Assembly (NCBI GenBank): GCA_963722385.1 | Contig: CAVRKK010000001.1 | Span: forward strand, 268,838 to 332,837 | Origin: an uncultured bacterium | Lineage (GTDB): Bacteria; Babelota; Babeliae; Babelales; Babelaceae | DNA length: 64,000 nucleotides | Reading direction: 5' to 3' | In this document: positions 15,770-29,737 of the stretch, one piece after another | Numbering within the stretch: the stretch's first letter is position 1 | How the letters are laid out: each line of letters begins with the position of its first letter | The notes under the pieces: generated by a model | What the model saw: the letters and a program-made list of their open reading frames with translations, nothing else | Database searches by the model: none | Told to the model about the DNA's origin: nothing | Made by a program: the position numbers and the translations under genes

Positions 15770-17116
15770 TTATGATTTAGCTCCTGCTTCTCGTAAAGGC
15801 TGGAGGAGCATTGCCATGATTATGGCAAATAGTTCTGGGAAAAGGCGTTGCAACTGAGCAGTAATTTGGCTGGCATCAAGACCGAGCACGTTGGGGCTTA
15901 GTAGGCGTTCAGCACCTATAGAGTATATGTCGTTAACTAATACTTGTAATTCCTCTTGTTCTTCAATGGCTTTCAACCGCGCAACAGATTCTTCAGCTGA
16001 TCTGGGTTGTTGATTGATGATATGCTCTAGAGCGCTTAAGCGACGATTGAGGGAATGCGTGAGGGCGGTAAGGTTGACCGCTATATTTTCATCAAGAGCA
16101 GTACTGAGGAGCCAACGCACTTGGTTGTAGCGACGTTGAGCGAGTGCGTAAGCAAGAGCCCTGTCGAAAATGCCAGTCCTATCAAAATCTATGTTCTGAG
16201 AAACGTCTTTCACAGCATCATACACATTTTGCATCGCTTTGATATTGCCTACAAGGGCAGCTCGAGCGAAGCCAGCAGGAAGGTTAACTATATGAGTAAA
16301 ATTACCGAGTATAAAATTGAAAACATTATAATTGCGCTGAGCAATAGCAAGGAAAAATGCTTGCCGAAGAAGTTGCTTATCTTCCTCACTGAGCTTATGA
16401 TGGTGAGCTTTTTGTAGTAATTCCTCTAAGAGCCGTAAAGCCTCTTTATTTCTCCTCGCTGTTATATAGGAAAGCAGCAATTTTTCATCTGTATAAGCTC
16501 TCATTGCAAGAATCAGGCGGGAGCTCGCGGTAGGGGTGAATCCATGTTCAAATAGCCATCGCAATACCTCTAAGGGATACGTACCTACTTTTAGATAAGG
16601 AAGGTTGAGTTGAGCACCAAGCATCATAAATTGGGCAAGCTCAAGAGGTTGAATTGCGAGTCCTAAATTAGATTTAATAAAGACAAAAATGGCTGTGTCG
16701 CCTAAGTGAAAAGGATGGTTTATTGTAGAAGGGGAAGGGGCATTAATATCAGCACCATAATCTACCAACAGTTCGATAAGTTCTAAAGCGTCAGGCATGG
16801 TTGCCGCTAAAATAATTGCCGGAAAACTTCCTGTTTCATGAGGTAAGGCACCATGAGCATTAGCCCGAGCGCCCTTTGCGAGAGCTTCTTTAGTAGTTTC
16901 TATGTCATTGGCTAAAATAGCGCTGATCAGCATATGGTCAAGCCTTTGCTGTTCTTCAGACCTTTCTTCAGAAATTATTACCCAAGAAGCCGGAGAGGCT
17001 TTAGGCTCGCCAGGGGCCTCTCCGGAAGGTTGATTATTCTGCTTCTCCATGGTATTGATGCCAGCGCTTGAGAATATTCCAAAGATAATTAATATAAAAA
17101 TAGTATAAGTCTTCAT
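15770..17116 (-). CDS. Secreted ankyrin-like repeat protein with F-box-like C-terminus
   Basis: ALAKGARAN, LLVDYGADINA ankyrin-type turns; tail RLFPELFAIIMAMLL. Confidence 0.75.
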   Translation of the reverse strand: MKTYTIFILIIFGIFSSAGINTMEKQNNQPSGEAPGEPKASPASWVIISEERSEEQQRLDHMLISAILANDIETTKEALAKGARANAHGALPHETGSFPAIILAATMPDALELIELLVDYGADINAPSPSTINHPFHLGDTAIFVFIKSNLGLAIQPLELAQFMMLGAQLNLPYLKVGTYPLEVLRWLFEHGFTPTASSRLILAMRAYTDEKLLLSYITARRNKEALRLLEELLQKAHHHKLSEEDKQLLRQAFFLAIAQRNYNVFNFILGNFTHIVNLPAGFARAALVGNIKAMQNVYDAVKDVSQNIDFDRTGIFDRALAYALAQRRYNQVRWLLSTALDENIAVNLTALTHSLNRRLSALEHIINQQPRSAEESVARLKAIEEQEELQVLVNDIYSIGAERLLSPNVLGLDASQITAQLQRLFPELFAIIMAMLLQPLREAGAKS

Positions 17117-17261
17117 TATAATGATCCTAATTATTTTATTTATTTTAATAATAATAAATTTTAAATTAAAAAATCAATATATTTATTACTGAAAATTTTA
17201 TAAGGTTTTTACCAAGGGGTGCAAAATTTGCACTTCTATAAGTAGTTCATAGGCTATTGTT

Positions 17262-18182
17262 TCATTTAGCTTCTGGCTGGCGTCGTAGATGCTGGAGTAA
17301 AGGGGCCATGATTATGGCAAGCAGTTCTGGAGGTAGGCGTGGTATCTGAGCAGTAATTTGGCCGATATCAAGACCGAGCACGTTAGGACTTAATAATCGC
17401 TCAGCGCCTACGTTACGTATATCTCTCAAGAGGGCATTTAACTCTTCTCGTTCATAAAGGGGGTTGCTTATTTCATCCTCATTTTTATAAAAAGGGACTA
17501 ATTGCTTCAGTCGAGCTTTTATGTCAGTTAATTGTTCATCTAAGGCATTTAATTCATTTTGTTCGTTTTCAGGCTGACCAGAGGTTTGCAAGCGATTTAT
17601 GACTTGGGATCGCTGAATCATTAATTCTTCTTTTTGCTCAAATAAGATGGTTAGTTCATCTTGCTCTTCTTCTGATAGGGGTGAGGTAGCAAAATGATTA
17701 ATGGCTATATTGTCATTAAAAGCAGTATTGAAAATCCAGCGTATGGCATCCATATGTCGCTGGGCGAAAGCGTAGGCAATCGCTCTGTCGAAGATATCGT
17801 CCCAGTTTACATGAGGTGCATCATGGTAAATAGTTTCCATAGCATGGATATTGCCCACAAGCACTGCACGTGCAAACGCTGGAGCAAGGTTAAGTCGATC
17901 AGCAAAATGATTGAATATAAAATCGAAAATAACGTCATTCTGCTGTGCAATAGCAAGTAAGAATGCTTGCTGAAGAAGCAGTATACCATCTTTGGCAAGC
18001 TCATTATTTTCTGCTTTTTGATGCAGCTGCTCGAGAATAGATAATGCGTTTTTAGTCCAAAGAACTGATAAAGCTTTTTTCTTATTGGTTACTATATAAT
18101 TGCGTAGATCGTTGTTCGGATAAACGTTTTGTAATATTAGACTATGTTGGATTAATCCATGCTCTAACAACCATTGCAGCAC
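17262..18182 (-). pseudogene. 5'-truncated paralog of 15770..17116
   Basis: Shares QAF.LAIAQ, FARA.LVGNI.AM, GAERLLSPNVLGLD; lacks signal peptide and first repeats; abuts the DUF1761 gene stop. Confidence 0.7.
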
Positions 18183-18220
18183 CTTGTGGGAATAATTTCT
18201 CCAATTTAAAGGAAGGAGAC

Positions 18221-18679
18221 TTACCTCCAGATACCCAAGATTGCACCTGCAGCTAAAAGAGTTACTAACATATTACCTATACCTAACCAAAACAAAGTCT
18301 TTTGGTTACACCATAATGCATCGCTTAATTTGATTGGTACAACAAACCCGATCCATACTAAGGAAGCTACCATCAGCCCACCATTAAAAGATACCATCCC
18401 CATATTTTTCATAAACACGGCCAATACGTAAACCATAGCCAAAGTGCCGAGGAATTGATAGATGTATACCATTCCAAGGGTCTTCTTGAGCTCGGCTATT
18501 TGATCTGCGTTCATTGTATCCATGCCAACGGCACACATAAAGTGCTTCCCAAAAAACAGCCCGTACCATAACGCTCCAATGATCATAGCTACAATAGAAG
18601 CAGCTACTACCGGTAGCCAATGTACGCTCATAATCATCATTACTTCACCTTCTTGCTTTAGTTGAATCCTAAATACCAA
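18221..18679 (-). CDS. DUF1761 family membrane protein
   Basis: V.WL.VV.A......IGALWYG.FFGK.FM motif, 4 TM helices. Confidence 0.85.
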   Translation of the reverse strand: MVFRIQLKQEGEVMMIMSVHWLPVVAASIVAMIIGALWYGLFFGKHFMCAVGMDTMNADQIAELKKTLGMVYIYQFLGTLAMVYVLAVFMKNMGMVSFNGGLMVASLVWIGFVVPIKLSDALWCNQKTLFWLGIGNMLVTLLAAGAILGIWR

Positions 18680-18840
18680 TTCATAATCCTTAAAAAGGGT
18701 AATCAGATTCTCCTAGGCTGTCAAGACATCCAATGGGTTTTGCATGCTAAGCATAGCAATCACAGATTACCGCTATCAATGAGCCGAATGCTTGATTTTT
18801 TTTAAATAAATATTATATTTGCTAATAATTTATTAGGAAA

Positions 18841-19590
18841 ATGATGGATAATTATCAAATGATCGCTGGCATTGATGATGCAACTAAATGTCCCTGTATA
18901 GGGAGCATTTTCCTTGCGGGTGCAGTTGCTGATGAGACCACTATACATTCATGGCAGGAGATTGGGGTTAAAGATAGCAAGCTTATTGCGCGTAAAAAGA
19001 GAGAAGAATTAGCAGGGATCATAAAAGCAACTAGCCGCGCTTATCATGTTGACCAAATAACACCTTCCATGATTGACGATAAGAGCTTTAATCTTAACGA
19101 GTGGGAGATGCTTATTGTTTTTAGGATAATTGAGGCATTGAGTCTATGTGAGCCTCAGCATATTTATATTGATAACTGGGAGACCTCTCAAATTGGCTTT
19201 AATAAGCGTTATCAGTTTTTAATGAGTGATGCTGCTCAGTTTCGGCGAGCTGAAAAAAATATTATATTGCAGCCAAGTCTGCTTGCTCAAGCGCCGGTGA
19301 TTGCCGAGCATCGTGCCGATGAAAATTATACTATTGTAGGTGCTGCTTCTATATTAGCTAAAACGGCTTCTGATGAGCAATATGATCACTATAAAAAAGA
19401 ATATGGCGATTTTGGCAGCGGTAGTCCTGCCGATCCCAAGACGCGTCATTTTGTTTGGCAGCATCGCCATAATCCTCCCCCTCTTATTCGTACAAGCTGG
19501 CATACATACAAAACGCTTTCTCTTCTATCACGTATAGAAGACGATCACCTTTATAAACCTAAAAACTATGCATTGACTGAGCGGTTGTAG
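18841..19590 (+). CDS. rnhB: RNase HII-family protein, archaeal/eukaryote-like, non-canonical motifs
   Basis: AGIDD, GVKDSK, YIDN, EHRADENY.IVGAASILAK, DFGSGSPADPKT, IRTSW. Confidence 0.85.
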   Translation: MMDNYQMIAGIDDATKCPCIGSIFLAGAVADETTIHSWQEIGVKDSKLIARKKREELAGIIKATSRAYHVDQITPSMIDDKSFNLNEWEMLIVFRIIEALSLCEPQHIYIDNWETSQIGFNKRYQFLMSDAAQFRRAEKNIILQPSLLAQAPVIAEHRADENYTIVGAASILAKTASDEQYDHYKKEYGDFGSGSPADPKTRHFVWQHRHNPPPLIRTSWHTYKTLSLLSRIEDDHLYKPKNYALTERL

Positions 19591-19704
19591 CTTTCCGCAC
19601 TCATACTATTTGATCTTCATTGACTTATTTACCTGTTAGTCTATTCTATTTAAATTGGTATTCCAGTAGATAGCTCTATCCTACGCTTATTTTGAAATAA
19701 TTTA

Positions 19705-21480
19705 ATGAGGTTGTTGTTGCTTATGAGATTTGTTGCCTTATTTCTTATTAGTATAATTTTATATGGTGCTTCTACTGACGCGATGGAAAGTACGGACCCT
19801 TCGGAACAGCTTAGGCAAGCTATTGTTCGAAGTGACTTTGGGGCTGCTCGGCAGGCTTTTATGCGTGGAACAAATGTTCCTGCTATATTGAAAAGCATGG
19901 AGATTGCTGTTGTGGAAGAGTTTAAGCAAGCATTTGCTCGAGGTGACGTTAAGGCTGTTGAGTTGGCTATCATGCGTGGAGCGGCTATGCCCGCTATAGT
20001 GCAAAGCGATGAAGCCATACGAGGGTGGTATGGTAGTCCTTTGATTAATGTTGCTGCCCGTATTGGCAATGGTGAATTAGTGCTGCTTCTCTGTGAGCAT
20101 GGTGCCGATATCAATTCTTGTGAGTTCGAGGTTTTCCATTATGGGAAGCATATTGAATCGACATCGGTGATAATGGCTTTTTTGATGGCGGAGCTCAATG
20201 GTACTGAAAGCGTCGAGGAGCAATGGAAGCAACGAAAATATTGGCTTAACCGTGTCTTAATGCGTGGAGCTCAATTAAATATTGATGCGGAAATGCCCAT
20301 TCAATTATTGCGACACCCTTTGAAAGAAAAATGCTTGCGATGGCTTTTCAGACATGGATATCGATTAAAGCCTGGCAATATACCTAATACCTTTATTCGT
20401 CAAGCAGTAGAAGATGCTTATGAAGATTTTCCTTTTTTGGCACTTGTTGTTCTTAGATCTTCTGGTACAGCGAAGATGTTTAATGAGATGCTTTATTTTT
20501 TTGAGCAAGGTGATGATTCCGAAGTTGATGCTAAAGAAAAAGCGAAGACTTATAAAACATTGATAATATTGGCGACGGCACAGCGAGATCGAATATTAGG
20601 CAAAATTTTGGATTCGTTAATAGTTAATGATATCCCAGAAAAAATTTTACTGAAGGCGCTTGTTATTGCAGCGCTTATTGGGAAAAGGGGGAGCTTCGGC
20701 TCATTATATCAAAAGTATATTGACAGAAGGCTTAAGCAATCAAATAAAGAATATATTGAGAGAGCGCTGAAGAAAGAGAATGAAAATGCTAAAGACAGAA
20801 TGCTTGAGCAAGCGGATAGATTGGAACTGCTTGTCAGTGTGGAGGAAGTGAGGGCTTTAAGCCAAGCGCTTGGGTATGCCGACGCTCATGGACATGAGAA
20901 TCTCATTGCTTTTTTAAATATCAAGATTAACGAATTGTTTATCAAATTAGTAATGAAAAGAAATCCAGCCTATACTATAATTTTAGATAAATCGGGCGAT
21001 TTTCTGGAACAAAAAACTCTTCAGAAAGCATTTGATATTGCTATCAAAGCTGGAAATTGCGAGATAGTTAGAAATATTACTCGGTATGCTCATAATACGA
21101 TAATGGCAAATGAAGACGAATGGCATGCTACCATCGTAACAGCTCTTAAGCATGTCATTGTTTATGGGCCTGCCATACTTATTACGCAACTTTTACTAGC
21201 AGTGCCTTCTCATGTAGTAATTCCTGTCTTTGAACAATTGTACGTAGAACTCGCATCTTCTAATCAAGCGACATCCAAAGGATGGCAGACTGCGCTGATG
21301 AGAGTCATACAGGATGCAAGCTCACAGTATTCGGCAGAGAATGAGCCGGAACCTCTATCATTTGATGTATCGTCCCAGCTAGCAAGGTTGATCGGTTTTT
21401 TGCCTCCACAAGCGCTTCCCATACTTTTCCATATTCTCATTGGCTCATGGGAGCGATGCAAAAGGAACTCAGATTTTTAG
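19705..21480 (+). CDS. Secreted ankyrin-like repeat protein
   Basis: Signal peptide ..TDA-MES; PLINVAARIGNGELVLLLCEHGADIN; tail FLPPQALPILFHIL. Confidence 0.75.
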   Translation: MRLLLLMRFVALFLISIILYGASTDAMESTDPSEQLRQAIVRSDFGAARQAFMRGTNVPAILKSMEIAVVEEFKQAFARGDVKAVELAIMRGAAMPAIVQSDEAIRGWYGSPLINVAARIGNGELVLLLCEHGADINSCEFEVFHYGKHIESTSVIMAFLMAELNGTESVEEQWKQRKYWLNRVLMRGAQLNIDAEMPIQLLRHPLKEKCLRWLFRHGYRLKPGNIPNTFIRQAVEDAYEDFPFLALVVLRSSGTAKMFNEMLYFFEQGDDSEVDAKEKAKTYKTLIILATAQRDRILGKILDSLIVNDIPEKILLKALVIAALIGKRGSFGSLYQKYIDRRLKQSNKEYIERALKKENENAKDRMLEQADRLELLVSVEEVRALSQALGYADAHGHENLIAFLNIKINELFIKLVMKRNPAYTIILDKSGDFLEQKTLQKAFDIAIKAGNCEIVRNITRYAHNTIMANEDEWHATIVTALKHVIVYGPAILITQLLLAVPSHVVIPVFEQLYVELASSNQATSKGWQTALMRVIQDASSQYSAENEPEPLSFDVSSQLARLIGFLPPQALPILFHILIGSWERCKRNSDF

Positions 21481-21689
21481 TTTATAAGAAAGATCAAGCA
21501 GCGCTGTCGCAAGCCTTTTGAGTCAAGAAAGTTATCACAGCTCGTATATTGTTTCAGCTAAATTTACTAAATTATGTAGGAAATCAAGCTATCTTTCTCA
21601 AATAGTTAACATTATCGCCATAGAGATGCCTACCTCGCCTAAAAGCCGGCAAGTCTTTCCCAAGGCTTTTTTCTGATGCGGAAAGGATG

Positions 21690-22856
21690 CTAAGATAATA
21701 AGAAGCTGGTTTGTGCTGTTATTTGTATATTAAGCGGCTGAATAGTTAACCATTGGGCTGGTCTATTTTCTTCATTCACATGCCCAGCAAGTATACCATA
21801 CATATAAGCATATCTTATTTCAGCATCTGCTTCTATATTCCACAAAGACACTAATTGCGATAAGGCTGGATAGACAGAAAGGTTGAGCGAATGCTCGCTA
21901 TCAAGGTTCAGCAAATATCTAACCATATTCTCATTTCCTTGCACTGATGCTGTTATAAGTGCCTGCTCTAGAATTCTACGGCAATCGGTTTCTTTTATTA
22001 TTCGCTCTATTAAGGCCATAAAGGTAGCAAACTGCTTTTGAATGATTGCAGCTTGAAGAGCGAATTCCATGCCATGCCTGCTCATAGGAAAGCTATTAAG
22101 GATCAAATTAAGCATGTCTAAATTTCCATTTGCTGCGACAAGGTCAAGCGCCGAATCTGCTAATGCGGTAGGTGAAGCGAATTGGTTATTCGGTAATTGG
22201 GCAATAAGGTCCCGAGCTTCATCGAGCTGATCACAAAGAAGGCTATAAAAAAGAGGACGAAACTTCATATACTGTGTTAACAAAGGATAGCCCTCAGATT
22301 CCACCATAGCGATTAAAGTCTTTCTATTTTCTTCGCTTAAAGTTCCGTGCTCTAGCAGCCAAATGAGCGCAGAAGCTGCGCGAATACAATCCTCGCTATC
22401 TCTAGGGGAACTTTGATCTGCCCATTTATATGCCTCCCTAAGCGAAGCAAACGCTAAAGCAACCATTTCATCGTAATTATCAATGAGATTTCCCCCTCGC
22501 TCAACCAGGGCATTAAGGAAAGCACCGTCACCATATACGGCGCTTGCTCGCATTATTTCACCAGTGATGCTCGCTCCATTCTTAAGTAGAATATGAGCAG
22601 CCTTTAAATTATTTTGAAGTAGGCCCAGCAAATCGTTCTTAAACTCGACGACCTCAAGTAAATCGGATTCTTGTTCCTCCATCAGATTTGTGCTATTAGG
22701 GGGAAGAATAAACCTACATTGAGTACGACTGGTCGGTACGCTTGCTGTTTTATTTTGATCTTGGGCTGGATATTTTTTTGTTCTTCCACTTTGAGCAGAA
22801 AAAGGCATGAGTAAAGAAAAACTAAATAAAATAATATGTACGGCCGAGTATATCAT
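21690..22856 (-). CDS. Secreted ankyrin-like repeat protein
   Basis: ILLKNGA, ALDLVAANGNLDMLNLIL, ALITASVQGNENMVRYLL. Confidence 0.75.
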   Translation of the reverse strand: MIYSAVHIILFSFSLLMPFSAQSGRTKKYPAQDQNKTASVPTSRTQCRFILPPNSTNLMEEQESDLLEVVEFKNDLLGLLQNNLKAAHILLKNGASITGEIMRASAVYGDGAFLNALVERGGNLIDNYDEMVALAFASLREAYKWADQSSPRDSEDCIRAASALIWLLEHGTLSEENRKTLIAMVESEGYPLLTQYMKFRPLFYSLLCDQLDEARDLIAQLPNNQFASPTALADSALDLVAANGNLDMLNLILNSFPMSRHGMEFALQAAIIQKQFATFMALIERIIKETDCRRILEQALITASVQGNENMVRYLLNLDSEHSLNLSVYPALSQLVSLWNIEADAEIRYAYMYGILAGHVNEENRPAQWLTIQPLNIQITAQTSFLLS

Positions 22857-24004
22857 TGTTCCTCCGAAAAGGCATGGAAACTGGGCTCTTTAGAGCGCAG
22901 AGGAAATACCCTGTTAAAACTAAAACTATAACCATGAGCAGCTGAAATGATTTTACAGAAGCGGTAACTAATCCCCTGAACTGTTTTGGAAGGGGTAACA
23001 ATATTAAAAGAACCGCTTGTTCTGATAGCAACCTTACCGAGGTATTTCCCTTTCTTTTTACCGTGTGGTACGCGAGCACAAATAATATCGCCTGTTTGAA
23101 ACCCAAAACATTTTTTGGCAGATTTTGCGCTAGTACGAGGAAAACCATACTTATCTACTCTACACATTTGTCGGCTACCATGACCTATTGCTTTTATCAG
23201 GAGCGGATTAACATGATTCACCATGAGCTGCGATGGTGTAGATGCACCAACACAAGCAGCATCGAGCCAATGAGCCTTCGGTAAGTTTTGCAGATTTCTA
23301 TTATATTTAGTTCTTCCACCGGTACCTGTTTCTACGGGTAAGCCGAGAGAACATAACGCATGGTAAAGATGCCAACGAACGCTATTCATCGCCGCGGCGT
23401 CTCTCAGTGACGTCTTGCCTAACTCATGTACTTCAGGATGACCAAATTCTTGCACAGTCTTATTGCCTTTTGCCTGATTGCATGAAGTACACGCCAGAGT
23501 GAAATTTGAAATACGACTGCTACCTCCTCTGCTCTTTGGTATTATATGCTCTATTTCAAGAGGGATCCCAGATTTTTTACAATAGACGCAAGATCGGTGA
23601 AACTTTTCGAGCAAATACTCGCGAACTTCATAGCCAGCCAAGGTTCCTTGTTGATATTCGACACCCGTAATATGGGCATTTTGCATAAGCTGCGTATCGA
23701 AACGTACCAATTCCTGGCTAATAGCGCCGATAGGACAATAACGTATAAGCTTATGGACCCATGTTATGGTATTATCTATCCTACTCTGCAATGAAGGGGC
23801 AAGCCAGCCGGCAGGCCGAGTTCTATTATCAAATCGAGATTGGCGATATCGCGTCTTTCTATTCCTTCTGCTTCTACGGAGACTTCCTCTTGCAAGAAGT
23901 TGATCGCGAATGGTGTTTCCTCTGTGCTCAATCTCTGCCGCAAAGGCTACTTGGCAGGGGTTACAGGGTTGCTTATTCTTGTCTACGACAAACACTAAGG
24001 ACAT
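22853..24004 (-). CDS. iscB: IscB RNA-guided endonuclease with in-frame N-terminal deletion (RuvC-I absent)
   Basis: VFVVDKNKQP, RRSRRNRKTRYR bridge helix, QELVRFD, HNH EHIIPKSRGG..N..CNQAK, HWLDAAC; aggag RBS before ATG at 24004. Confidence 0.92.
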   Translation of the reverse strand: MSLVFVVDKNKQPCNPCQVAFAAEIEHRGNTIRDQLLARGSLRRSRRNRKTRYRQSRFDNRTRPAGWLAPSLQSRIDNTITWVHKLIRYCPIGAISQELVRFDTQLMQNAHITGVEYQQGTLAGYEVREYLLEKFHRSCVYCKKSGIPLEIEHIIPKSRGGSSRISNFTLACTSCNQAKGNKTVQEFGHPEVHELGKTSLRDAAAMNSVRWHLYHALCSLGLPVETGTGGRTKYNRNLQNLPKAHWLDAACVGASTPSQLMVNHVNPLLIKAIGHGSRQMCRVDKYGFPRTSAKSAKKCFGFQTGDIICARVPHGKKKGKYLGKVAIRTSGSFNIVTPSKTVQGISYRFCKIISAAHGYSFSFNRVFPLRSKEPSFHAFSEEQ

Positions 24005-24356
24005 GACACTCCTAAAAATCTCCCCATAGGGGGTAAAGTTTGCCTCGCTCATGTTATAAGGCGGCGTATCTAAAAAGCACTGACTTAAACCCTCGGTCTG
24101 TTTAACCCTTTAGTTACAGAGCTTGGTCCGGCCTTCGTAGCCACATTACCAGCTAGAATCTGGTTTACAGCAAACTTCGGCGGAGTAGGCAACTGGCAAC
24201 CCCCTTCGCTAAAGCTTCGGAGGTCAGGCGCATCCCAAGGTGTGATCTTAAGCCCTTCCTTATAACGTAGCCGTCTTCGCTCAAGAGCTACATCGGCTAA
24301 AGCTGGTCAACCCGGGCTTCTACAAGCCGCGGCCTAAAGGCCGCTGGTTAGTTGAC
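22857..24356 (-). mobile_element. IS200/IS605-family IscB element (non-autonomous, no tnpA)
   Basis: Begins GTCAAC at 24356; 3' end ttcctctgcgctctaaagagcccagtttcc...ggaggaaca followed by ATGA. Confidence 0.88.
24010..24356 (-). ncRNA. omegaRNA (HEARO-like) scaffold with three palindromic insertions
   Basis: GTCAAC..GTTGACCAG, GGCTACGTT, CCTTGGGATGC, TGCCAGTT, CCAAGCTCTG, GTTAAACAG, AACAT.AGCGAGGCAAACTTTACC blocks in canonical order. Confidence 0.88.
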
Positions 24357-24496: not shown

Positions 24497-24761
24497 ATGA
24501 AAGTGAAAATGAGCTCTTCTGGGCAAGAAGCGAAGGAACTTAAAATCGGAGGAACCTATGAGCATTATAAAGGAAATCGCTATAAAATTATCATAATAGC
24601 TCGCCATGCCGAAACATTGGGAGGAGCATGTTGTTTACCAAGATCTTAGAGAAGCCCAAAAAATATGGATTCGCCCTCTTAAGGTATTTCAAGAGGAAGT
24701 GCTGCGAGAAGGCCTAAGCATTCCAAGATTTCGGTATCTACAGAAGGAGCTATCCGAATAA
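24497..24761 (+). pseudogene. DUF1653 family protein, +1 frameshift
   Basis: GTYEHYKGNRYKII..ARHAETL / EEHVVYQ..WIRPL..F...PRF; shift at ttgggagg; span is 264+1 nt. Confidence 0.85.
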
Positions 24762-28120: not shown

Positions 28121-28308
28121 CGTTGATCGATATGTTTAGGAACCGAGAAATCATGTTTGATTTTAGCTTAAGCAATATCCACGGGCTATTTTCCTCCTTT
28201 GAGCTAAAACTCTACATCTGAATAAATATTCTGCTGAACCAAGATACTCTTGTTTTGAACCCTACATTAGGTTACAATAAATGTGACTTACTGTGGAGTT
28301 ATTTTAGA

Positions 28309-28857
28309 ATGCAACCAATGAAAACTTTAAACGACTGGCTACTAGCGAATGCTCATAGTGAACGTTACTTGTTTACATCACAGGACTTGAGGAGTCTCTT
28401 CCCTAATTTATCTAACGGGGCTTTTAAAACGTTGCTTTCTCGAGCAGGTCAAGCTGGTTATTTGGAAAGATTATGCAGAGGATTATATGCCTACAAAAAG
28501 GCTATTCCATCCCATGGATTATTGTTATTCCATGCAGCAGCGCTCCTAAGAAGTAAAGAATTCAATTATATCAGCTTAGAAACTGTTTTAAGCGATGCAG
28601 GTATAATTTCTCAGGTACCTATAAATTGGATTTCTATTATGTCATCAGGAAGAAGTAATAAAGTGATTTGTGGCAGATTCGGTACAATAGAATTCATCCA
28701 TACTAACAAGAAGCCACTTGAGGTTATGGACCAGTTAACCTATAATGCACAGCGCAAATTATGGCAGGCGAATGTGCAGCTTGCGATCAAGGATATGAAA
28801 GCAACACATAGAAATTGTGATTTAATAGATTGGGATATTGTTCATGAATTTATTTGA
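28309..28857 (+). CDS. Type IV TA antitoxin, AbiEi-like
   Basis: N-terminal wHTH (LERLCRGLY), YISLETVLSDAGIISQVP. Confidence 0.88.
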   Translation: MQPMKTLNDWLLANAHSERYLFTSQDLRSLFPNLSNGAFKTLLSRAGQAGYLERLCRGLYAYKKAIPSHGLLLFHAAALLRSKEFNYISLETVLSDAGIISQVPINWISIMSSGRSNKVICGRFGTIEFIHTNKKPLEVMDQLTYNAQRKLWQANVQLAIKDMKATHRNCDLIDWDIVHEFI

Positions 28858-29737
28858 TAAGTTAACGGAAGAAGCATTAAAAAATCAACCAAATTTCTCA
28901 CATTTAAGGATAGTCGTCGAAAAAGAGTTGTTACATCACGATATCTTAAGGGTGCTTCGTGATAATAATCTAATTTCGAGCCTTACTTTTATAGGTGGAA
29001 CCTGTTTAAGGAGCTGTTATGGAGGAGTAAGGCTTAGTGAAGATCTGGATTTTACCGGAGGTGCCGATTTTTCGAGAGATACTCTTTCTGCAATGGGAGA
29101 AATACTAACCAAAAGCTTGTACGACAAATATGATCTACAGGTTACCGTAAGCGAGCCAATAAAAGATAAACAAAATGTTGATACATGGAAAATCAAAATT
29201 CAAACAAGACCAGAGAGCAATAATATACCTTCCCAGCGTATTAATATTGATATTTGTGCATTACCTTCCTATGAAAAGCAACCTATGATGCTGCTGAATC
29301 CTTATGGCGTAGATATGGGAACATCAGGGCTCATTATACAAGTGCAAAGCCGTGAAGAGATTTATACTGACAAACTTATTGCATTTGCGTTTAGGCCAAA
29401 TCGTATCAAATACCGCGACCTATGGGATATAATTTGGCTTAATGAACAAGGAATAAAACCAAGGTTACCTTTGATCCCTAAGAAACTTAAGGATCGAGGC
29501 CACACCAAAACCACTTTTTTTAGTTTATTTGAAAAACGCATCCAGCTACTTAAAGAAAGACCTGAAACAGCATTAGAATTTAAGCATGAAATGCAACGCT
29601 TTTTACCAATAGAACACGCTAACAAAACGCTCGAACAAGAACATCTATGGAATTTTATCATCTATTTAATAGAAGATTTAGGAGCTCAGATTCGAAAAAA
29701 TTGGAATCAAGTTTGGCGAGAAGCCATAGTTAAATGA
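28844..29737 (+). CDS. Type IV TA toxin, AbiEii/AbiGii nucleotidyltransferase
   Basis: FIGGTCLR, RLSEDLDF, DKL.A, RDLWD. Confidence 0.92.
   Translation: MNLFDKLTEEALKNQPNFSHLRIVVEKELLHHDILRVLRDNNLISSLTFIGGTCLRSCYGGVRLSEDLDFTGGADFSRDTLSAMGEILTKSLYDKYDLQVTVSEPIKDKQNVDTWKIKIQTRPESNNIPSQRINIDICALPSYEKQPMMLLNPYGVDMGTSGLIIQVQSREEIYTDKLIAFAFRPNRIKYRDLWDIIWLNEQGIKPRLPLIPKKLKDRGHTKTTFFSLFEKRIQLLKERPETALEFKHEMQRFLPIEHANKTLEQEHLWNFIIYLIEDLGAQIRKNWNQVWREAIVK

Follow-up and report, generated by a model that had tools for sequence, protein, structure and literature searches.

An iscB copy lacking RuvC-I and most of PLMP: a probable decaying ISC element with an interrupted omegaRNA

IscB is a small RNA-guided DNA cutter and an ancestor of Cas9. 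On the reverse strand of the window (i.e., the whole stretch of 64,000 nt analysed here), one iscB gene has an open frame and an intact HNH region, yet lacks most of the PLMP domain along with the RuvC-I catalytic motif. Does such a gene encode a natural HNH-only nickase or binder, a mirror image of IsrB, or is it a recently inactivated copy? The first-pass annotation of the locus had left both options standing. Our analysis favours the second one: with a probability of about 0.8, the locus is a decaying non-autonomous ISC/IscB element (IS200/IS605 family) at an N|ATGA site, since a 94%-identical paralog defines the lost piece, the deletion shows no spread, the protein structure appears damaged, the omegaRNA hairpin is interrupted, the deleted alleles differ at conserved sites and the sister elements carry deletions of their own.

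The deleted frame and its junction

The two features on which the question turns are the following:

22853..24004 (-), iscB open reading frame of 383 aa, without 58 codons (PLMP and RuvC-I); bridge helix, RuvC-II, HNH, RuvC-III and WED/TI region present
23952..23953 (-), deletion junction, 174 nt absent with respect to the C2 paralog, one base of ambiguity (from the alignment to the paralog; crossed by contigs)

Read from 24004 to 22853 on the reverse strand, the frame runs for 383 codons without internal stop, and MSLVFVVDKNKQPCNPC is joined directly to QVAFAAEIEHRG, with PCNPC abutting the latter, as initially described, the junction lying at 23953/23952 (instead of near 23955). The genome of the window (1.60 Mb, 2 contigs) holds this copy, a paralog on contig C2 (94%) and two short remnants (one deleted copy). 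The paralog (G000:C2:1160226-1161509) encodes 427 aa with a whole N-terminus and shares 94% nucleotide identity with the window copy over 1099 nt. Relative to it, 58 residues are absent, in agreement with the 50–60 residues of PLMP and RuvC-I first estimated, including the A-R-x-L-L helix, the P-F-x-I-I-L strand and the K-x-D-P-G RuvC-I motif with its catalytic Asp. Of PLMP, only residues 1–17 are left, the helix and two strands being gone, and the tripartite RuvC is incomplete: the Asp and strands 54–60 and 64–70 are missing, while the RuvC-II Glu and the RuvC-III His/Asp are there. The bridge helix, the HNH residues (His153, Asn167, Asn176 and four Cys) and RuvC-III (His245, Asp248) are all retained, and the catalytic residues that the first-pass annotation had listed were thus found in place. 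Profile alignments, which it had proposed as a check, concur: the window protein reaches 336 bits against NCBIfam guided_IscB (cut-off 175), but its best stretch starts only at profile position 74 (74–314 of 314), the C2 paralog covering positions 1–314. Similarly, Pfam RRXRR matches residues 19–120 (starting at position 73 of the profile) and Pfam HNH matches residues 139–182, both above cut-off.

Both ends of the segment missing here fall, in the paralog, within imperfect 8-nt direct repeats; as these words agree at 6 of their 8 positions, the sequence suggests that slippage between them gave rise to the deletion. That 174 nt were lost in frame is no more than chance, as is the case for one deletion in three.

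With two copies that share 98% identity in the 176 nt preceding the gap, the apparent deletion might instead result from a misassembly or from a collapse of the two paralogs. The stretch is partly present in nine runs, and contigs (not raw reads) of four of them (X1 to X4) were compared; among the contig pieces listed, none spans the whole locus. Record 18 of X4 (23880-24128, study P3) and record 5 of X1 (23854-24120, study P1, possibly the source) nevertheless span the junction with 0 differences and >31 letters on each side, while record 13 of X2 extends past it by just 29 letters. Moreover, the same junction occurs in two database proteins, P0002 (211,126-base contig) and P0124 (1,774-base contig), which differ from the window protein by 2 and 3 residues, respectively. 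The exact junction pattern yielded 0 matches in metagenome_contigs, a collection that may omit records of closely related genomes. Contigs from two studies thus cross the junction without difference, and the misassembly of which the first-pass annotation had warned is unlikely, the idea that it or a collapse of paralogs created the gap being scarcely credible.

A probably damaged protein and an interrupted omegaRNA

The effect of the loss was examined with AlphaFold2 models of the proteins without RNA (73–74 aligned homologs). For the paralog (pTM 0.72), residues 1–90 are modelled with block pLDDT of 86–94, and the residues lost from the window copy there form the PLMP helix (19–27), strands 31–35 and 40–43, and the RuvC strands 54–60 and 64–70. 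For the deleted protein, pTM is 0.58 and residues 1–20 have pLDDT of 45–54, with the HNH, TI and C-terminal domains still mostly confident (block pLDDT mostly >80). The PLMP motif is described as touching both RuvC and the omegaRNA, and its mutation as lowering IscB cleavage (PMC9640706); for IsrB, PLMP is presented as part of a rigid RuvC-TI-PLMP scaffold, and its truncation abolished nicking (PMC9581776). According to a review, OgeuIscB is only slightly affected by PLMP removal, other IscBs more strongly (PMC10734217); PMC13180657 yielded nothing on PLMP deletion. We infer that, without RuvC-I, the deleted protein makes no double-strand break, and that the loss of the PLMP helix and of two RuvC strands probably precludes a stable complex.

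An alternative is some residual, unselected activity, by which the protein would bind its own or the paralog's omegaRNA and nick or bind DNA weakly, as a by-product of recent damage. There are few lesions besides the deletion, the omegaRNA of the paralog is uninterrupted, and RuvC-inactivated point mutants of IscB are usable in base editors (PMC13180657). However, a point mutant keeps its fold, whereas the deletion removes strands, and the PLMP truncation that abolished IsrB nicking (PMC9581776) also argues against such an activity, which we regard as improbable.

While the anatomy of the deletion had been correctly described from the outset, it had been overlooked that the omegaRNA upstream of the gene carries two insertions, one of 30 nt and one of 64 nt. 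The features of this region are:

24033..24356 (-), omegaRNA, Rfam HEARO 105.6 bits, above the gathering cut-off (130.2 bits for the uninterrupted copy of the paralog)
24356 (-), element 5' end, GTCAAC, where the omegaRNA starts
24199..24228 (-), 30-nt palindromic insertion in an omegaRNA hairpin loop (alignment to the paralog)
24127..24190 (-), palindrome of 64 nt inserted into the 3' strand of that hairpin (alignment to the paralog)
24005..24032 (-), terminal hairpin, with an AGGAG resembling a Shine-Dalgarno site ahead of the iscB start; one base different from the paralog

The insertions flank a short UGCCAG loop, about 100 nt standing where the Rfam model has 7, and they are absent from the paralog and from eight copies in related genomes. 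In study P2, record 16 of X3 includes the 64-nt insertion and the greater part of the 30-nt one. With them, the hairpin extends over 119 nt, compared with 25 nt in the paralog; among the 40 of 159 fetched loci measurable by pattern, it spans 25–28 nt in 39 and 49 nt in one. By comparison with the description of OgeuIscB, we infer that the interrupted hairpin corresponds to the nexus pseudoknot hairpin, the loop of which is expected to form an essential pseudoknot; in OgeuIscB, a change in the pseudoknot loop abolished editing (PMC9640706). In ViennaRNA folds, which are computed without pseudoknots, the unpaired probability of the UGCC letters is 0.12–0.20 in the local fold of the window copy vs. 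0.96–1.0 in that of the paralog, and 0.39–0.60 (window copy), 0.44–0.55 (paralog) and 0.76–1.0 (four relatives) when the whole omegaRNA is folded, so that the contrast with the paralog disappears there. As for the outer stem, its probability is 0.99 in the local fold with the insertions and 0.04 in the whole-RNA fold, vs. 0.40–0.99 in the comparison copies. Taken as predictions that differ between local and whole RNA, these folds suggest that the insertions probably spoil the omegaRNA pseudoknot.

Another possibility, compatible with the decay reading, is that the protein is dead but that its omegaRNA guides the IscB of the paralog in trans, as a PATE-like guide donor. The HEARO score is still above the gathering cut-off, both insertions are hairpins around which the outer stem closes in the local fold, omegaRNA-only elements exist in genome G004, and PATEs needing a nuclease in trans have been described (bioRxiv 2023.03.14.532601). 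Against it stand the predicted local sequestration of the pseudoknot loop, the near-absence of the outer stem from the whole-RNA fold and the state of the paralog itself, which has Leu for the D-P-G Pro (98% conserved) and Asp for the HNH Gly (89% conserved). We hold this role to be unlikely.

Regarding the insertions themselves, the core of the 30-nt one matches a degenerate palindrome with 9 occurrences in the genome, vs. 0, 0 and 0 in three shuffles. Three other patterns are not enriched in the genome, in which BLAST returned no full-length second copy of either insertion. A palindromic repeat with a core like CGWAGCYTYDGCGHAG is inserted in hairpins of IscB elements in two genomes, with sites at 24127-24228 of the window and at C1:30436, 102532, 105662 and 296933 and C2:86785, 240287, 463371 and 953579 of the window genome (G000). 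A similar 30-nt piece lies in the 3' hairpin of a G004 element (L022/L143), and short matches to the repeat are also present in G035 and G055.

Distribution of the deletion, selection and sister elements

To these signs of damage, one may oppose a selected HNH-only RNA-guided nickase or binder, in which the short protein and its enlarged omegaRNA (94 extra nt of hairpins) would be a working pair. The frame is open, the HNH, bridge helix and TI regions are intact, the HNH and TI regions still fold in the models (block pLDDT mostly >80), and PLMP is reported as nearly dispensable in one IscB (PMC10734217). Moreover, the deletion recurs in runs of two studies and in two other database proteins. 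Both P0001 and P0002 have an open frame of full length; neither the HNH residues nor the Shine-Dalgarno site are damaged, and several samples bear the deletion.

The distribution of the deletion among homologs was examined in 238 proteins gathered from two homolog searches and a cluster look-up (best 120 of 8000 scored; 117 of 130 candidates, for which residues 1–60 across the junction served as the query). The RuvC-I Asp is kept in 234 of them, the exceptions being P0002, P0123, P0124 and one Asp-to-Ala change, and it is present in 159/159 fetched loci (best 79 of 301 and best 80 of 211), both sets being score-ranked and thus leaning to full-length proteins. At 90% identity, the cluster has five members, drawn from samples that are not necessarily independent: the window protein, the paralog, P0002 and P0124 (both with the same junction, P0124 ending at residue 353) and P0123, which begins at residue 107 and bears the residues of the window copy. 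Among 261 genomes of the phylum, the paralog has matches in 20, and, among the matches listed, the gap is seen only at the window locus (candidates in G034 and G064 being scored in part). The named records that carry the nearest taxon label belong to Candidatus Dependentiae, which, along with a small genome rich in ankyrin genes, suggests this phylum as the probable host. Hence, as far as these sequences go, the deletion is confined to one 90% cluster and has not spread; the first-pass annotation had suggested looking for it in relatives, and it turned up only in the cluster-mates P0002 and P0124, not in the wider homologs examined. Our literature search met no report of a natural RuvC-I-deleted IscB, a matter on which the IscB catalogues in supplements, with their inactive members, may bear, and the top 49 rows of a Foldseek search are IscB, IsrB and Cas9 structures only.

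The dN/dS comparison, also proposed in the first-pass annotation, speaks for its selected option, but in a limited way. Between the window copy and the paralog, 23 nonsynonymous and 31 synonymous changes were counted over 361 codons (dN/dS 0.20, p 3e-8 against neutrality). When polarised with the G064 copy (250 codons, 4 sites ambiguous), the branch of the window copy has 8 and 11 (dN/dS ~0.21, p 0.001) and that of the paralog 10 and 7. With dN/dS of ~0.20–0.21, these sequences argue that the window copy is not long dead. Yet the branch value does not show selection after the deletion, against which the changes cannot be dated, because those from the phase of active element count too and because pairwise comparisons of either copy with the frameshifted one of G064 give much the same result (0.15–0.17).

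The differences among the deleted alleles, in turn, should postdate the deletion. They include R75S (R in 117/119 homologs), G253D (G in 119/119) and P223L (P in 105/119; in 3/4 alleles), as well as V366A, T341I and I352T, the last two being the residues of the paralog; all were read from protein sequences only and may include sequencing errors. Other candidate lesions of the window copy were rejected: a C-terminal tail resembling a frameshift (the longer tail is common to the G064 copy), R40G in the bridge helix (the G064 copy has it too) and Val184 (shared with remnant L002).

Altogether, a single locus and a single 90% cluster, two missing strands of the RuvC core and alleles varying at near-invariant residues weigh against a selected nickase, as do the guide, which has no second ATGA target in the genome (see below), and a 2026 paper according to which, by personal communication, there is no informatic evidence for natural IscBs that have lost TAM-interaction and RuvC function (PMC13284715). 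Consequently, we find such a working pair very improbable. The same holds for the two proposals that go with it, namely that target-strand nicks suffice to restore the element or are less toxic to the host, and that the inserted hairpins make up for the lost protein scaffold, with a nick beside the ATGA. Of the two options of the first-pass annotation, the natural HNH-only nickase is left with little support beyond the branch dN/dS, while the recently inactivated copy is the best fit to the omegaRNA insertions, the deletions of the sister elements and the single cluster.

These sister elements are decaying in various ways. The closest copy outside the genome (G064, 85–90% nucleotide identity) has an out-of-frame loss of ~332 nt that spans RuvC-II and HNH, and runs X1 and X2 have a joint at the same place, X1 also having a 196-nt skip. 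In G004, one element (L143) has its first codons joined to the last ~40, nearly the whole gene being gone, and another (L144) consists of an omegaRNA and a 3' end without a gene. In G034, L151 is split by three frameshifts.

A few details of these copies may be recorded. The element of the C2 paralog (G000:C2:1159967-1161545, L001) has a 5-nt loss near its 3' end and 6 extra bases before the ATGA. The G064 copy is divided between both ends of one 12.7-kb contig (C2:996-1918, L141; C2:12362-12695, L142). Finally, a 3' remnant of an IscB element (L003:1990-2400, G000:C2 ~586000) is joined to the apparent end of another element with a Cys4 zinc finger, which we take to be the end of a tnpB-type element.

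Element ends, known systems and surroundings

Three further features delimit the element and its guide:

22857..22905 (-), element 3' end with subterminal hairpin, terminating in GGAGGAACA, also present in the paralog, in the copy of G064 and in a remnant on C2
22853..22856 (-), target site ATGA, probably the TAM (N|ATGA rule, PMC4810608)
24357..24380 (-), flank expected to be transcribed as guide

Like the window copy, both the remnant on C2 and the copy of G064 have the 5' GTCAAC and the 3' end before ATGA, and the N|ATGA insertion rule is known for several ISC families (PMC4810608). The ATGA is shared by two genes, its ATG being the start of an ankyrin-repeat gene (22856..21690) and its TGA the stop of iscB. 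The locus thus has the conserved ends, the subterminal hairpins and the 4-base target without target duplication of ISC/IS200-IS605 elements. No tnpA is linked to it; the genome has 7 matches to the Y1 transposase (PF01797), two of them full-length, located elsewhere. No empty site of this locus turned up in 40 relatives, in which the flanking ankyrin gene has no match. The guide seed followed by ATGA has 0 perfect 8-nt matches elsewhere in the genome, 2 with one mismatch and 0 at 10 nt; for lack of any other 8-nt match, nothing points to a regulatory target. A scan for promoters and terminators was uninformative, with 5 promoter-like sites vs. 3.5 expected.

Besides the window (22853-22865), seven loci (L012, L013, L014, L016, L020, L021 and L141) end before an ATGA that often contains an apparent start codon, and several element ends carry a GGAGG-like word a few bases before it; with such sequences, an element may provide the gene before which it lands with a ribosome-binding site. 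The guide of the C2 paralog, followed by ATGA, matches over 8 nt at 5 places, three of which are paralogs of its downstream gene (C2:575340, 577909 and 582557); these look like the empty site of the C2 paralog and could be self-targets.

Under the decay reading, a Y1 transposase provided in trans would have inserted an intact ancestor, whose IscB, with the flank-derived guide, would have cut the empty site after excision, as described for intact elements (bioRxiv 2023.03.14.532601). Slippage between the short imperfect repeats would then have produced the 174-nt deletion, in frame by chance. With the loss of the PLMP helix and of RuvC strands 1 and 2, the PLMP-RuvC-TI scaffold would be misassembled and make no double-strand break, and the omegaRNA insertions would probably damage the pseudoknot as well. 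Like its sister copies, the element would now drift towards a protein-less, PATE-like state, although with its intact ends it may still be moved in trans.

Among known systems, the closest are the ISC/IscB N|ATGA elements of Kapitonov et al. (PMC4810608; NF040563), with which the locus shares the upstream HEARO, the bridge helix, RuvC-II/III and HNH, the 5' GTCA, the 3' hairpin, the ATGA and a Y1 transposase encoded elsewhere without linked tnpA; it differs from them by the deletion of RuvC-I and most of PLMP and by the two omegaRNA insertions. As in PATEs and deleted IS200/IS605 derivatives, the ends and the omegaRNA are present and the coding part is damaged (bioRxiv 2023.03.14.532601; PMC4810608), but a 383-codon frame is still open here, while PATEs encode no protein (bioRxiv 2023.03.14.532601). 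Like IsrB, the window protein is one nuclease domain short of the IscB plan; yet IsrB is described as a family with an intact PLMP-RuvC-TI scaffold and no HNH, the opposite of a protein in which the scaffold itself is cut (PMC9581776). Furthermore, the place of a mirror image of IsrB, as imagined in the first-pass annotation, is already partly occupied by IshB, an HNH-without-RuvC OMEGA family of ~180 aa made of PLMP and HNH, without RuvC or TI (as described in PMC11610941, PMC10734217 and PMC13284715). With IshB, the window protein shares HNH as its only possible nuclease site and target-strand nicking as its predicted activity. On sequence grounds, however, it is not a member: it has 383 aa, most of its PLMP is gone, RuvC-II/III and TI remain, and it derives by recent deletion from an IscB with 94% identity, without forming a lineage of its own.

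As a decaying copy, the locus adds one more internally deleted element to the IS200/IS605 family and offers a snapshot of IscB decay towards a guide-only state. Should the protein nick DNA despite its shortening, PLMP and the RuvC core would prove dispensable as a scaffold, and the protein would represent a target-strand nickase of ~360–380 aa as well as a model for an IshB-like architecture arising from IscB. The deleted copy and its full-length, 94%-identical paralog form a natural test pair in the same genome.

Regarding the surroundings in the window, a 50-codon piece at 24497-24649 (+), matching the first 23 of 62 DUF1653 positions, is probably a broken gene just upstream of the element. 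Further away, two adjacent ORFs of 200 and 299 aa (28255-29737, reverse strand) presumably resemble an AbiEi/AbiEii type IV toxin-antitoxin system. On the other side, positions 15770-22856 hold a cluster of ankyrin-repeat genes on both strands, with signal-peptide-like starts (two genes scanned), in which 17262-18182 resembles a truncated paralog of 15770-17116.
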